A stretch of 19,125 nucleotides of DNA from assembly GCA_964388265.1 (NCBI GenBank), contig CAYLXZ010000001.1:4933-24057 (forward strand), given 5' to 3'. The stretch is from Candidatus Micrarchaeota archaeon. GTDB taxonomy: Archaea; B1Sed10-29. Positions within the stretch are counted from its first letter, which is position 1. Every line of letters starts with the position of its first letter. Made by a program: the position numbers. Below are positions 1 to 6,000 of the stretch, piece after piece.

Positions 1-3000
1 AAGGGTGAGAAATCGTATTTGTCGTTTATGGTTATTTGGCCTCTTAAGTCGATTTTTTCATCTGATTCCGGTACTTCTAAAATGTAGTTATCCGTTACTA
101 GCTTTGATTCTCCTTGGTAGGAGTCTACCTGGGTTATACTTAGTCCTAGGGTGGTTAGGATTGTTAGTGTGGTTATTATTTTCATCATGGTGTTTTTATT
201 CATTTTTATCACAGTTTTACTTTTTTGATTGTTTCGTATGTGGGTCCGGAGCTCTTTAGATGGCTTTCTATTAGTTCAACTTCTTTTACTTCTGTGTCTT
301 TGTAGTGTTTGCTGTATTCTTCTTTGAAGGCTTTTTTTATCTCTGGGTTGGGTTTGTTTTTGACTCTTGCTATGGTTACGTGTGGTTTGTAGACCTTGTC
401 TCTTTCTTTGAATTCTTTGTTTATGTACGCTTTCTCTGTTTCTCGGGCTAGTTTCCTTATCTCTGGTGTGTTGACTCCTATCCATATTACTTTTATGAAT
501 TCTTGGTTTGGGAAGGCTCCTGTTTCTTCGAGTTTTGCGTTGAATGACCCGAACCCTTCTAGTTCTTCCAGTGCTTTCTCCGCGTCTTTTATTTTTTCTT
601 CAGGTGTGTCTCCTAAGAACTTTAGGTTTATGTGTAGGTTTTCTTCTTTAACTGTCTTTGTTGAATTGAATTTCTCTAGGAAGTTTATTAGGTTTTTTAT
701 CTCTTTGTTTGGCTTTATTCTGATCCCTGTGAATAGTCTTCGGGACATGTATAATCAAATCATTATATATTTAAAAACTGTTGGGTTTCTTTCATATGAG
801 TTTCAGGAGTTTGTAGTTTTCTTCGAGCATTGATTCGTCCTCTGTTTCAAGGAAACATCCTCCTTTGAAGTGTTTCTGCATGTTCTTTGTGACTTTATTG
901 GGTTTCTTGGTGAATTGAGTTATTTCTTCTGCTGTTCCTGTTCCTTGGAATTTTTCCAGTGCTTCTTTGTCTGGCTCTTGGCTTAGATAGATATCTATTT
1001 CCTTGTCTTTGAGTTCTCTCTTTATTTTCCTTATTGTTTTCTTGGTCTGTTTTTCTGTTTCTCTCGTGATTTTCTCTGTATTGTTTAGTTTTTTCATTGA
1101 TTTTATCAGCCCGATTAGGGAGAGGTTGTAGCTGAGTTGATTTATATTTATTTTTTCTTCTTTCTTGGTTTTTGTTTCCATGAAGGATAGTAGTTCTTTC
1201 TTTTTTTCCTTGATCTTGGTTTTTTTCTTCTTCATTATCTCTTTCGTTGTGTTTATTTCTTGTTTGAGTTTTTCATGGAATCTGGTTTCTTCTTCTAGGG
1301 GGTAGCTCGGTAGATTTAGGGATATTGTCTGCATTACTCCTTTTTTATCTCTCGGAACTGTCTCCATGTAGGTTAGGCTTTCTTTTAATCCTCCGTTGAT
1401 TAGGTATATTGGCCTTGGCAGTTTCTCTGGGTTTTCTATTGGTTCTTCGTGTTTTATGCAGATGTTCGGGAACTTGAATGTGTTATCTTTATAGTCTCCT
1501 TTTTTGTAGGTTTCTAGGAATATTTCTTTGAATTTCTCTGCTTCTTCGCTGTATTCTTTGTAGGGTATACCTGTCTTTTCTCCTTTCACCACTGTTTCTT
1601 CTTCTTTCAATTCTTCAGGGATCTTTTGATCTAGGTTCACTGTGTAGGCCAGTGGGTGTGCGCTTACTTGGTTGAGTTCATAGAGAAAGGTCTGCGCTAC
1701 CTGTTGAATTTCTTCTCTGTCTAGTTCCTTTAGGTATGGTGCTATTAAAGTATTTAATGAATCTATTGAGGTTCCGCCTGAGGTGTATCTCTTGGAGATT
1801 AGAAGTGACCTGGCTGCGTGTGAGGCTGCTACTTCTGGGTTTTGAGCTGGACCTGTTTCAACCACTTTTGGTATTTTGATTCCTTCTTTGAACAGGTTTC
1901 TCAGGTTGTTTTTGAGGGATATTGGCCTTGTTACGAATCCTTCGATGTTGTGGATGTGTATGTGTCCTTTTAGGTGCTCTTGGCTTAGTTTTCTGGGTAG
2001 TGCTTTTGTGAGCGTGTATTCTTTCAGTACTCTTGAGCTGAATTCTTCATGTAGTTTTGTGGGGTCGGATACTTCTTTTTCTTCTATTATCTTCTTTGTA
2101 TCGTATATTGGGAGCCCTATCCGTGTGTAGTTTCTTTTTTCGTTTATATGTCTCTTTTCTAGGAGTTTGGCGTTCACCATTTCTCTTATCAGGGAGCTTG
2201 ATATGTTCTGTAGTTTTAGTCTTCTTACGTCTTCGCTTATTTGGTCTGCTACTTCTTTTGCTACTGTTCTTGGTACGTAGGTTTCTCTTAATAGTGATTT
2301 AACTATTTTTTCTTTGTTGAATGGCTGTAGTTTTCCATCGGTTGTTCTAACTTCTATGGAGTGGTAGTTCCGGAATCTTTCCGCGGCTTCCTCGCTGTAG
2401 TTCTTTAAAGTTTCATATATTTTTCTCTGTATTTCTTCTTCCCCTATGTCTCCTTCTAGTTCGTCTTTAAGTTCTAGGGAGGTTTTTGAACCTATCCAGA
2501 AGTCTATTCCTGCTCTCTTGCATTTTTCCAGTACTTCATTCGGAGAAACCATACACTTAATTTAATGGAGTGATAATAATTAAATATATGGAGTTAGATG
2601 AAACTGATAGAGAAATCCTGGATATTTTGAAGAACACGGGAAGGATAAGTTATACTGAAATAGGGGATGAATTAGGTATAAGTGATGTTGCAGCGAAGAA
2701 GAGAATAAGTAAATTACAGGAAGAAGGTGTTATAGAGAATTTCACGGTTAATCTAGATTACTCCAAGCTAGGTAAATCTCTACATGGGTTCTTGTTAGTC
2801 AAGATCTCTCCTGAAATCAAGGAAAAAACCAGAGAGAAACTTCAGGGTAACGAGAAAGTCTTGAGGTTCTACAACACGATAGGAGAATACGATTTAATCA
2901 TAGAAACAGCTTGTAAGGACCTGGATGAAGTGAAAGAGTTCACTGAAAGAGAAATAGGTAACTTAAAAGGAGTTCAGGAGATAAGAACAGCAATAGTCAC

Positions 3001-6000
3001 GGGTCAGTGATCAACATGAAGATAGAGGCAAAAGTCAAACCCACCGAGAAACCAGAAAAACTGAAAAAAGCAATCCTAAAAGTCTTCCCAGACGCGGAGC
3101 TAGATTTCAATGAACAGGAAAACAAATTCAAAGGAGAAACCAGTTTCAAAGAATTCTGGGAAAAAGTAGAGGAACAGAAAATCAGGGATTCAATCCTAGA
3201 AGTACTCAAGAAAAACAAGAAGAATAAAAGAACCTATATAGATATAAGTAAGACAACAGCTGCTTCAGGTAAACTCTCCACCTACGTAGGGTCTTCACTA
3301 GGGAAAATACATCTGGTTATAGACTGGGAAGAAGCAGATCAAGTAATTCAAGAATTTAATTGACCATGATCCAGTTACACGTATGTAAAGAAATAAATAG
3401 GTGAATAGGGTTAATTTAAATATGAATCGATTCAAGGTTCTACTTTCACTATGTCTAGTTTTCACCACAGCCTTAGCAACGGTTCAAGTGGTTGACCCGG
3501 TTAATGAAACCTATGAACAGGGAGATGAAATCAACCTAAGGCAGAAACCCTATCAAACAGGGTACAACATTCTTCTAACGATCGAGAAAGACAAATGGAT
3601 CAACTTAACATCTCCAGACTTCGATACGTATATCGAGGACCTGAACAACACACTTAAAATTTCACTAAGAAAAATTCCGTCTGAAAAAGGCAACTACTCC
3701 AGCGAAATAACATTCATAGGGGAAGACAACACAACACAGACCAATACCTTGCTCTATAGAGCTAAAAAAACCAAGCTACATGCCTACATGAAGTACCCCT
3801 TGAATAGAGAACTCCCTAAGAACGACACGGTCTCGATAGGAAAGGTTGCTCCAGGGCAAAGAATGACTCTCGTGCTTGGAAGAAAACTTAACTCAGGTCC
3901 ATTCAAATGGGGAGAAGCAGAGGTAATCGGAAAGGAATCAAGCTACTACAACGTACCCAAAGACAAGGAACTCAACGAGATAATACCAGTAGAAACAATC
4001 CAGAAGAAGAACCTGCATAAAGAAAACCAAACCTACATAGCTCTAAATTTAGAGGCACCGGAAGAAACCGGTTCCTATGAATTCGAAATCAAGTTAAAAT
4101 CCTTATTCAGCTTCCCAGCCACTAGGAAACTCTCAGTAGAAGTAGAGAAAGATGTATATAGCTTTGAAGTATCTGACTTAACGGCCACGGCAGGAGAACC
4201 CAATGAGATACCTGTATCCATAGAAAGTGACTCCATAGCTGTGGAGAAATTCACCTTCACACCACAGTCTCTACCTAAAGACTGGGTTATGGGTCCAAAA
4301 GGAAAAGAAGCCACCGAGATAAAAGTTAGAGCGGGAGAAGACAAGGAATCATCTCTACCTATACAAGTAGATCAAGAAGGAATGTATGAGGCATCTTACA
4401 GAGTCATGGATCGAGGAGGCAGGTTTGTTGGAACTTACTCTTCGGAGATCTATGTGAAACCTACGATTAAATCAAAGTTAGGTGGATTCAAGAAAGGACA
4501 TAGCCTAACATTACCAATATTACAGCCGTTCTATTCTTTATTCAGTCTTCTAGGGTAGTTGAATCTGGTTTGGTGTTTTTATTGTAGTTTCTTGTAGTTT
4601 TTTTCTTCTAGTTTGTCAAGAAAGTCTTTGATTCTTTTTTCTTTTACATTGAGGTTTTCTCTTAGTTCTTTTTCCAGTTGTTTTTTTGATTTGTTCTCTG
4701 TTTTGTTTCTCTGAAGCCATTTAAGAACTTTTTTCTGATCTTTAGATATTTTGAATTCTTCTTTTGAACCTGTTAGGCCTATTTGCAGGTACGGTTGGTG
4801 TGGTTTTCTAACTTTTTCACTATATTTAAGAGGCATCTTTGCTATCTTCTGCTTTACTCTTGATGTAGGTTCTTCTATTCCTGCTTTATGTAGCTCGGTT
4901 GAGATCCTGCTAGCGACATTGCCTATTCCTTTTTCTTCTGCTTCTCCTTTTTCAAGAAGCTCTTTAGCTCTTTTTTCAACGATTTCATCTACTGAGAGTT
5001 CTTTTTCTTCTTTCCATTTTCTGTATTTCTTTATTCTCTTCTTCTCCTTTTTACTGAGTTTTCCACCCATCTCGTTTCACTCTATCTTGTTTAACGGCTT
5101 AGTTATAAAAAATCTTTACGGTTCTCTGGAAATCTTGTGATGATGGAAGGTTTGTATAAACCTATCTTTTATAAATTTATTCTTCCTTATCTAAATGTGA
5201 CTAAACATGAATCATAATAAACTCACCATAACTATCTTGATGGTAATACTAATATTCCCTGTAGCAGTGAATGCTTCTTATCAAGAAGGATCACCATGGC
5301 CAAGATTCGGACGAAACAACACTGGACAGGCTAGAAGCCCTTATTACACTAGTCATATAAACGGAACAGAGAAGTGGAGTTTCTCTACAGGTGATTATGT
5401 GGTTTCTTCTCCTGCTGTTGGTGGTGATGGTACTGTTTATGTAGGTTCAGATGATGGTAATGTGTATGCTTTGAATGGTTCTACTGGTTCTGAGATCTGG
5501 AACTTCACTACAGGTGGTGATGTGCATTATTCTTCTCCTGCTGTTGGTGGTGATGGTACTGTCTATATAGGTTCAGTTGATGGTAATGTGTATGCTTTGA
5601 ATGGTAGTGATGGTTCTGAGATCTGGAACTTCACCACAGGTGACGGTGTGGATTCTTCTCCTGCTATAGGTGCTGATGGTACTGTCTACATTGGCTCTGA
5701 GGATAATCATGTGTATGCTTTGGATGGTTCTACTGGTTCTGAGATCTGGAACTTCACCACAGGTAATGATGTGCGTTCTTCTCCTGCTATTGGTTCAGAT
5801 GGCACTATCTATATAGGTTCATATGATCATAATGTGTATGCGTTGACAGGGAAATATAATAACCTGACAACCAACTCTACAACTGGTGGGTCGGTAGATG
5901 ACCCAGGGGAAGGTGAGTTTAATTATGCAGATGGAATAGAAGTCACCTTAAGCGCTTCCAGTGACACAGGCTACAACTTTAGTGAATGGACTGGGGACAC

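Follow-up and report, generated by a model that had tools for sequence, protein, structure and literature searches.

Why would an archaeon keep a class III ribonucleotide reductase (RNR) that has lost its active site, and why next to a transcriptional regulator? Here, we address this question for a divergent gene pair in a 19,125-nt stretch of a Candidatus Micrarchaeota genome (the window) and its counterparts, sought in 31 genomes of the phylum and in further archaea. The pair points to an undescribed archaeal way of keeping the supply of DNA precursors in step with nucleotide levels. The relevant features of the window are as follows.

209..748, minus strand: RNA 2',3'-cyclic phosphodiesterase gene downstream of the dead gene (profile match)
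792..2552, minus strand: catalytically dead class III RNR (pseudo-NrdD), 586 aa (ORF, profile matches, AlphaFold, Foldseek, alignment)
1668..1850, minus strand: dimer interface and specificity site for dNTP effectors on helices A/B, residues 235-295 (conserved residues)
2130..2354, minus strand: second cone module, residues 67-141, an ATP-cone of archaeal VRTS type that may bind ATP/dATP (PF03477, E 1.5e-10)
2361..2552, minus strand: N-terminal capless ATP-cone with CxxAG(I/V)xFW motif, residues 1-64 (invariant residues, cone-like fold, co-occurrence with Lrp)
2553..2587, no strand: divergent promoter region, 35 bp, AT-rich, with overlapping TATA-like elements (sequence, gene spacing)
2588..3010, plus strand: Lrp/AsnC regulator of a distinct subfamily, recognition helix (S/T)DVAxxKR (profile matches, clade support)
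3007..3363, plus strand: gene of family PF01877 that overlaps the stop codon of the Lrp gene (ORF, profile match)

The Lrp and dead genes lie head-to-head with their starts 35 bp apart, and their transcripts are predicted to be leaderless. The PF01877 gene is probably co-transcribed with the Lrp gene; it is a neighbor only, and no link to the system was seen. An Rfam scan of the whole window gave no match.

Lost and retained residues of the dead NrdD

The product of the dead gene matches the Pfam NRDD family (E 1e-35) and scores 139.5 bits against TIGR02487, below the curated cut-off of 326.35. Its AlphaFold model (pLDDT 83.1) has the 10-stranded barrel of RNRs, and its best Foldseek matches are class III RNRs (E 9e-19), consistent with the full NrdD fold assigned in the initial annotation; the working NrdD of the same genome (G000:C28) is, as reported there, only 28% identical. 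The annotation had also described a change from RPVC to RPxS. The strand-A cysteine of RPxC is indeed replaced by Ser or Ala in 27/27 dead members, while R-P is kept only partly. Likewise, the reported absence of the MGCR loop, zinc site, and glycyl-radical tail extends to 23/23 full-length members, which end before the C-terminal domain carrying the last two; the finger-loop thiyl cysteine motif (MGCR or xCCx) is missing in these as in the window protein, and the one qualification is L014, in which a lone Cys aligns within the degenerate finger-loop stretch and the radical domain is missing. The NxN substrate flap is lost as well, and a sequence check found no CxxC pairs in the dead NrdD or the Lrp. 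Judged by its sequence, the protein is unable to form a radical or reduce nucleotides by the known mechanism.

The gene is under purifying selection, with a dN/dS of 0.10 in the closest pair, the same as for the working enzyme, and of 0.34 (G000/G004) and 0.18 (G002/G004) in further pairs; 5 of the 15 pairs were saturated. Among the retained elements are the YTRxGLP linker, H201 of the triphosphate-binding HxHD motif (27/27 members), and the specificity-site residues H245, R248, N267, Q284, Q287, Y291, and E292, which were mapped onto effector residues of the T. maritima and P. copri enzymes described in PMC4493059 and PMC11226230. At sequence level only, H245 and R248 are kept in 27/27 members, Q284 and Q287 in 26/26 covered members, and E292 in 25/26. 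The persistence of H201 might suggest that the protein has gained another enzymatic activity on nucleotides, one that needs no radical; we find this hardly credible given that the substrate flap is gone, the finger-loop region is the least conserved part of the protein (0/33 columns at least 90% conserved), and no new invariant catalytic set was found in the C-terminal half of the barrel.

Two N-terminal modules, annotated as a degenerate cone followed by an ATP-cone, are evident. Residues 1-64 are modeled as a cone-like four-helix bundle, and their best matches are ATP-cones (64 aligned residues, rmsd 2.2, Z 7.4, which is below 8 and suggestive only); relatives with a full cap match the ATP-cone family over the equivalent region, and C11, G15, and L49 are invariant across 30 aligned sequences from four lineages. 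In the second module, matched by PF03477, 22/76 columns are at least 90% conserved. Bacterial ATP-cones carry KR at a position where the dead NrdD has TS or TT; because of this replacement, nucleotide binding by the ATP-cone is not assured.

Conservation of the divergent pair

The Lrp matches PF13404 (wHTH) and PF01037 (AsnC ligand-binding domain) above cut-off and falls below the curated cut-offs for LysM (85 vs 180 bits), LrpA, ChrS, and AsnC. Its DVA-type clade is separated from 22 paralogs with a support of 99/98.

The dead gene had been counted in 28/31 genomes based on best matches starting at residue 1-7. Because the best match in G017 is an intact enzyme with RPFC, YQCC, the zinc site, and RITGY, the count is 27/31; the idea that this enzyme is a living ortholog of the dead clade was rejected (AU p 0.0014 for the grouping). 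A divergent Lrp gene, previously noted at 19/20 loci, is directly adjacent at 25/27 loci and lies across a contig break at the 26th (G028); at the 27th (G002), the TnpB gene already noted occupies the Lrp position and is followed by the contig end. Dead NrdD and Lrp are both present or both missing in 30/31 genomes, a count in which losses in broken assemblies are non-independent due to the adjacency of the two genes. Two or three archaeal phyla beyond this one have the pair as well. The genomes are 61-98% complete, and related genomes are not independent.

It was suggested earlier that the protein might be a non-catalytic subunit of the active NrdD. Such an action on the enzyme rather than on transcription, through mixed dimers with working NrdD or as an NrdG scaffold, would fit the conserved dimer-interface helices and the gene order in several relatives, in which nrdD and/or nrdG lie between the dead gene and the RNA 2',3'-cyclic phosphodiesterase gene (nrdD directly after the dead gene in G010, G012, G013, and G014; nrdG at most 5 bp after it in G028 and G030). 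However, 8/27 genomes of the phylum keep the pair with no NrdD above cut-off, all eight having a PF02867-type RNR, and 5/10 sampled genomes of a second phylum keep it where no working NrdD was found. These observations weaken the subunit alternative. Moreover, where a working NrdD is present, it is often of a distant type, as with the 28% identity in the window's genome, and an enzyme subunit would leave the Lrp unexplained, so that we regard this alternative as improbable. One of these five second-phylum genomes consists almost entirely of one 1.24-Mb contig.

The cone of residues 1-64 (FW cone) is the part of the protein that follows the Lrp. FW-type cones are accompanied by this Lrp at 28/30 loci and non-FW cones at 0/8; in a third phylum, it lies within about 1.4 kb at only 14/26 double-cone loci, and one intact FW-cone enzyme there has none within that distance. 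The catalytic cores behind the FW cone do not form one clade, and a single origin of all Lrp-linked NrdD cores was rejected (AU p 6e-9). We suggest that the FW cone is a candidate module for contact with the Lrp. In MAFFT-based trees, the dead NrdD is nested among archaeal single-cysteine MGCR-type enzymes. A first tree, which joined the second-phylum proteins to the winged-helix fusions described below, was discarded in favor of these because its HMM-aligned rows were only about 25% filled.

A palindromic box before working RNR genes

Promoters of working nrdD, nrdJ-type, and nrdG genes contain a 17-bp palindrome, GGTTHG-N5-CDAACC. Using a matrix trained on only eight sites from the Lrp/pseudo-nrdD intergenic regions of two families, we found that 17/23 pair-carrying genomes have a box of at least 10 bits ahead of a working RNR gene (0.6 expected from shuffles), as do 7/179 other upstream regions, while none was present before RNR genes in the examinable genomes without the pair (0/3). 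The box is not confined to class III genes but also occurs at those of class II type, with held-out matches in the nrdG promoters of G020 and G022, and 14/32 RNR genes have none. In the second phylum, likewise held out, 9/11 RNR upstream regions have a box, compared with 2/50 controls, and the geometry is irregular. Mostly, the box is located 6-7 nt before a TATA-like element, and further boxes lie 31 bp before and 63 bp after the main box (spacing 31-32 bp). The window's own genome is among the six of 23 below 10 bits (9.2 with the strict matrix); with a matrix excluding this genome, the box upstream of its nrdD (C28:4458) scores 11.6 bits, joint second of 394 upstream regions. This box shares the region upstream of nrdD with a divergent gene, whose start is 145 bp away, and the TATA-proximal copy is degenerate.

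A loose pattern, GGTTNG-N5-CNAACC with one mismatch, gave no genome-wide excess over a reversed control and falsely matched tRNA T-loops; it was rejected as too degenerate. The exact pattern RTTHGRWWWYCDAAY occurs at 38 sites vs 25 in the control. Twenty of the 38 are at nrd or Lrp promoters, a share that is mostly circular because the pattern was derived from such sites, and the remaining 18 are at chance level except for ftsZ. Altogether, the predicted RNR regulon of the box is well supported.

Which protein would bind the box? Because LysM-like Lrp boxes are generic and genomes have up to six Lrp-type matches, another Lrp paralog could do so, and an 11.6-bit site precedes one of the 22 paralogs; the head-to-head pair would then have an unrelated target. 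We consider ownership by another paralog or factor very improbable, because the matrix derives from the promoters of the DVA-type Lrp itself, and the DVA recognition helix is conserved across phyla alongside the box. Moreover, G017, which has an Lrp paralog and no DVA-type Lrp, lacks a box before either nrdD (1.7 and -1.2 bits, scored without operon leaders further upstream).

The pair itself is only partly a target. No box was found in the window's intergenic region (2553..2587; best score nearby 2.1 bits) or in that of most of its order, so self-regulation of the pair is not general; boxes do occur in the dead-gene promoter in families f9-f12. Since RNR genes are box targets, the dead RNR could be an old target, and the Lrp might sense a small molecule itself, with the dead NrdD as a co-regulated neighbor that has a separate job such as dNTP buffering. 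The GxYD loop of the effector domain is conserved in the Lrp, in line with this idea. We nevertheless consider it unlikely: the FW cone tracks the Lrp across unrelated catalytic cores, dead NrdD and Lrp come and go together (with the caveat of adjacency), and the pairing is retained where no box separates the two genes.

A proposed two-protein regulator and its known counterparts

The initial annotation proposed an RNR pseudoenzyme likely to act as a nucleotide sensor or regulator. All tests fit this proposal, and the candidate operator before working RNR genes sharpens it: we think it reasonably probable that the dead NrdD and the Lrp form a two-protein archaeal substitute for bacterial NrdR that controls RNR genes. 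The Lrp very probably binds the palindrome in RNR promoters, with the box before TATA in an activating position and the -31 and +63 boxes allowing cooperative binding and repression. Given such binding, the dead enzyme would probably read ATP/dATP in its ATP-cone and dNTPs at the dimer-interface specificity site and signal this state to the Lrp through the FW cone; nucleotide binding and the contact with the Lrp are both predictions. If the state is passed on in this way, RNR genes may be transcribed at low dNTPs and shut off at high dNTPs, a direction that is our guess.

More tentatively, and slightly short of what we would call probable, the circuit may be ancient: an RNR, first working and then dead, would dock on the Lrp via the FW cone, report the ATP/dATP ratio and dNTP balance, and control any RNR class as well as ftsZ in four families. 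If so, ftsZ control would tie cell division to DNA-precursor supply, and the system would be the first in which a protein partner switches an Lrp, as well as the first in which an RNR pseudoenzyme has a regulon. For at least three phyla, the analysis names a regulator, a binding site, and the promoters targeted, so that the proposal becomes accessible to tests using two small, soluble proteins plus a 17-bp oligonucleotide. In addition, a single locus displays an evolutionary series with a working enzyme at one end and a pseudoenzyme at the other. A caution also follows for archaeal genomes, in which some genes carrying an anaerobic RNR annotation are inactive; an annotation of this kind was found on one inactive gene. 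The literature searched, which excluded subscription journals and supplements whose catalogues may list the proteins, contained no description of a dead NrdD-Lrp system, and "inactive" is not mentioned in the searched passages of PMC9669993 and PMC9531940.

With active class III enzymes (T4, T. maritima, P. copri, S. thermophilus, and the Methanocaldococcus double-cone type), the dead NrdD shares the fold, ATP-cone, YTRxGLP linker, helix A/B residues, and HxH; in contrast to them, it lacks the RPxC cysteine, finger-loop motif, NxN flap, zinc site, and glycyl-radical tail. Its proposed job resembles that of NrdR, which, according to PMC9110341, is rare in archaea and exerts nucleotide-dependent control of several RNR classes through an ATP-cone and palindromic boxes three helical turns apart. 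NrdR (TIGR00244) was above cut-off in 0/31 genomes of the phylum and 0/5 further genomes. Here, the tandem boxes are likewise 31-32 bp apart but Lrp-type, with the main box in an activator position. Whereas NrdR combines a Zn-ribbon and an ATP-cone in one protein of 150 aa, here there is no Zn-ribbon, a separate Lrp would bind DNA, and sensing would fall to an entire dead enzyme that includes a specificity site. As described in PMC2995911 and PMC3597687, LysM, Ss-LrpB, Ptr2, and LrpA share with this Lrp the wHTH and effector domains, a 15-bp palindrome with an AT-rich center, multiple boxes, and a BRE-adjacent site. The arrangement found here, with a box just before the TATA-like element and others at -31 and +63, corresponds to that of activating archaeal Lrps (PMC2995911), and the core of the palindrome is nearly identical to that of LysM sites, for example GTTCGGAAATCAAAC (PMC3597687, Table 1); unlike in these systems, the targets here are RNR genes, and we propose a protein as the effector in place of an amino acid.

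Dead NrdDs have been recruited to DNA-binding domains elsewhere, as evidenced by fusions of a winged helix, an ATP-cone, and a dead NrdD in Bathyarchaeia and others. A common origin with the Lrp-linked family is compatible with the data (AU p 0.35). However, the fusions are one protein, whereas the Lrp-linked dead NrdD is encoded by a separate, paired gene, and they keep the zinc site but lose Q284, Q287, H245, and E292, which the Lrp-linked family keeps. Enzymes or pseudoenzymes also act as co-regulators in the cases of glutamine synthetase with GlnR/TnrA, CysK with CymR, and Gal3 with Gal80; no RNR or Lrp example of this kind is known to us, nor did the literature searched contain one. In these systems, as we propose here, DNA is bound by a separate protein, which receives the metabolite state from an enzyme fold.

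The divergent gene pair and the loss of catalysis

The catalytically inactive paralog of class III ribonucleotide reductase (RNR), here referred to as pseudo-NrdD, and the Lrp/AsnC regulator gene lie head-to-head in the window:

792-2552, minus strand: pseudo-NrdD ORF, 586 aa, with Pfam NRDD and ATP-cone matches
2588-3010, plus strand: Lrp/AsnC gene, 140 aa, 35 bp from the pseudo-NrdD start

The first structural matches of the predicted pseudo-NrdD structure (pLDDT 83.1) are class III RNRs (E 9e-19), and TIGR02487 scores the protein at 139.5 bits (cut-off, 326). As proposed in the initial annotation, the working NrdD of this 726-kb archaeal assembly is a separate gene on contig C28 with 28% identity to the dead copy; it encodes 1013 aa with, based on motif reading, an intein-like insert and is followed by a radical-SAM activase-like gene, probably nrdG. 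Some genes adjoining nrdD on C28 are presumably of the mevalonate type, and the window encodes a 613-aa radical SAM protein with a PF23545 zinc ribbon (13853-15694, plus strand), which we take to belong to the MJ0619 family that includes tetraether lipid synthase; from these genes, the small genome may synthesize its own lipids. The window also encodes a secreted protein with a PQQ-type beta-propeller and an InlB B-repeat (5207-6208, plus strand).

The dead paralog is real, conserved, and under selection. In line with the initial annotation, the best match starts at residue 1-7 in 28/31 phylum genomes (29/31 have a match); however, the match in G017 is an intact enzyme, and its grouping with the dead clade was rejected (AU p 0.0014). 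Thus, the dead paralog is present in 27/31 genomes, and the four genomes without it are 62, 81, 78, and 91% complete. The annotated loss of the active site also holds, except that one member (L014) has a single Cys that aligns within the finger-loop region: the RPxC cysteine is Ser or Ala in 27/27 sequences, and the finger-loop motif, zinc site, and glycyl tail are gone in all 23 full-length ones. The NxN substrate flap, as described in an excerpt of PMC11226230, is lost as well. Among 22 pseudo-NrdD sequences, columns with at least 90% conservation make up 22/76 of the ATP-cone and 25/95 of the helix A/B region vs 0/33 of the finger-loop region, and the CxxAGxxFW motif at the N-terminus is retained. 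Using our own numbering of HMMER alignments, Q287 aligns with Gln210 of Thermotoga maritima at the effector metal, and R248 and Q295 align with the base-pocket residues Gln161 and Gln218 (excerpt of PMC4493059), while E292 aligns with Asn298 of P. copri (excerpt of PMC11226230). In the G025/G026 comparison, the dead gene has a dN/dS of 0.10 and the working gene one of 0.09; two more distant pairs gave 0.18 and 0.34, and 5/15 pairs were saturated.

The Lrp partner and a candidate operator at RNR promoters

The divergent Lrp gene noted in the initial annotation was seen directly in 25/27 loci, 32-93 bp from the dead gene, and in G028 the pair spans a contig break. In G002, a TnpB/IS605 gene (L219:499-1752) takes the place of Lrp 46 bp from the dead-gene start, and the contig ends beyond it. 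By eye, the N-terminus of this TnpB resembles that of a 183-aa ORF (plus strand), the first part of which occupies the window from ~18635 to its end. Orthologous Lrps (E < 1e-50) are found in 26/31 genomes and in 0/4 of those without the dead gene; given that the two genes adjoin, their joint absence is convincing only in G017, an assembly of two contigs. Among the Lrps tested, the 38 linked ones form one clade (99/98) vs 22 paralogs and have a common (S/T)DVAxxKR helix.

The RNR regulon of the Lrp box is well supported. The box is a palindrome, GGTTHG-N5-CDAACC, that lies between Lrp and pseudo-nrdD in families f9 and f11, and its matrix was built from these 8 intergenic sites alone. With a threshold of 10 bits and within 300 bp of the RNR gene, boxes lie near a working RNR gene in 17 of the 23 pair-carrying genomes whose upstream DNA could be retrieved (0.6 expected from shuffles), i.e., at 18/32 genes; G009 is counted only after start-codon correction. 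Control upstream regions had a box in 7/179 cases, including one tRNA and one gene on a shared RNR promoter. The six genomes that missed the threshold scored 9.2 (G000, the genome of the window), 7.5 (G006 and G012), 6.2 (G027), 5.3 (G011), and 2.9 (G004). The pair-less G003 (113 bp only), G005, and G017 score below 4 upstream of their RNR genes. Targets include PF02867-type RNRs in G009, G018, and G030, taken as class II but not separated from class I, and activase genes in G020 and G022. In most promoters, as read partly by eye, a TATA-like element follows the main box after 6-7 nt, and additional boxes lie 31-32 bp upstream and 63 bp downstream. In archaeal Lrps, the activating position is a few bases before the BRE, and a spacing of two or three turns is typical (excerpt of PMC2995911); the LysM gltB site differs from the box core by one base (PMC3597687, Table 1).

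A matrix scan found no box near the pair in the window. On C28, an 11.6-bit box (4458-4474), joint second of 394 upstream regions, lies 154 bp before nrdD and is common to nrdD and a divergent gene; the TATA-proximal copy is degenerate. Elsewhere in G000, a 10.7-bit box-like site lies 51 bp upstream of a 2949-aa ORF for an apparently membrane-anchored surface protein (C12:10354-19203, minus strand). In G020 (L170) and in the nrdD neighborhoods of G024-G026, a dCMP deaminase-family gene either directly follows the dead gene or is divergent from nrdD and shares its boxes. As a single case, G011 has a 16.8-bit box (L163:1501) at 55 bp upstream of a gene for an aspartate/ornithine carbamoyltransferase; a TrmB-like gene runs divergently from this gene.

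Boxes of 10-21 bits also lie ~75-140 bp before one type of ftsZ in 11/11 f9-f12 genomes checked (12/14 copies; loci L301-L306, L313-L315, L173, L175, and L176), three from the pattern search and eight held out. Here, the box is ~17-21 nt before a TATA-like element, one helical turn further than at RNR promoters. Upstream of this ftsZ in the order of the window's genome, it is absent in 8/8 genomes (one 10.6-bit match lies inside a coding start). These observations suggest that division is tied to dNTP status in f9-f12.

Lrp-linked NrdDs in other phyla

A second, larger phylum (probably Iainarchaeota) had a match in 53/101 sampled genomes, and all 30 of the best loci retrieved have a dead gene with a divergent Lrp. 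Using a matrix refined on the first phylum only, 9/11 RNR upstream regions of the second phylum reach 10 bits vs 2/50 controls; the boxes are less regularly placed here. In the phylum of G035 (Hydrothermarchaeota by title), 36/38 genomes have a match, and an Lrp is at most about 1.4 kb away in 14/26 double-cone loci; the Lrp-linked NrdDs include intact (L255, L260, and L261), decayed (L256 and L257), and dead ones. A fourth, small phylum has, in two of its genomes, a half-way NrdD (RPNS, MACR, zinc site, RITGY) that adjoins Lrp, and a second intact NrdD elsewhere. The L112 and L251 NrdDs, with a single active-site cysteine (RPNS, MACR) and intact zinc site and glycyl motif, adjoin Lrp and may represent an intermediate stage or have an unusual chemistry. 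In these last two phyla, the intact nrdD genes of all 6 single-cone loci score 9.3-15.6 bits.

In the first two phyla together, the dead proteins form one clade (100/100). A single clade for all Lrp-linked cores was rejected (p 6e-9), so catalysis was lost at least twice. The N-terminal ATP-cone-like module with the FW motif was linked to Lrp in 28/30 loci, many of them kin, and cones without the motif in 0/8; it is this cone, not the catalytic core, that tracks Lrp. The intact FW-cone enzymes next to the same Lrp suggest that a working enzyme may first have doubled as a sensor and lost catalysis after another RNR was acquired. Separate NrdD-like groups without finger-loop and glycyl motifs (P0016, P0020, P0025, P0029, P0033, and P0035; P0105, P0109, P0131, and P0143) are nested among other active clades, and NrdDs seem to have become inactive on many occasions. 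Similar bacterial clusters are listed in the ESM Atlas.

Proposed mechanism and relation to known systems

Our data show a dead enzyme with retained sensing surfaces, tightly linked to Lrp, and a candidate operator. Pseudo-NrdD could instead be a partner or subunit of one enzyme and not a regulator of RNR genes. However, 8 of the 27 genomes with the dead gene have no NrdD over the cut-off and all 8 have a PF02867-type RNR, and among 10 sampled genomes of the second phylum, 5 have just class III and the other 5 just PF02867; one of the PF02867 genomes is assembled almost entirely as one contig of 1.24 Mb. With a completeness of 61-92% for the 8 genomes and an activase gene retained in G028, gaps may account for some of the absences. 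Because the dead protein is kept whichever RNR is present, the subunit role fits less well than a regulator of RNR genes. A sensing partnership of pseudo-NrdD and Lrp is likely. Lrp very probably binds the RNR-promoter boxes; if so, pseudo-NrdD probably binds ATP/dATP and dNTPs and contacts Lrp via its FW cone. We guess that Lrp on the promoter-proximal box would activate RNR genes, and that dNTP-loaded pseudo-NrdD might remove Lrp or drive it onto the downstream box.

In full-text literature searches, we found no description of the Lrp pair or the box, and the system itself appears undescribed; enzymes that act as co-regulators of transcription factors are a known kind of system. Pseudo-NrdD is built like NrdD, but the window protein fails four defining tests. 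The pair resembles the bacterial RNR regulator NrdR in its probable job but is not NrdR: TIGR00244 had no match over the cut-off in 31 phylum and 5 other genomes, while 9/14 control genomes were positive. When 1.84 billion representatives were searched with a profile, many fusions of a winged helix, an ATP-cone, and a dead NrdD also matched (39 rows so labelled; domains from Pfam), a large family with a DUF7347 winged helix (L099-L103 and L110; P0044-P0147) that in Bathyarchaeia-titled records lies directly upstream of intact nrdD. The analysis neither establishes nor rejects a common origin with the Lrp-linked family (p 0.35). Specificity-site residues that the Lrp-linked family has kept are gone from the fusions.
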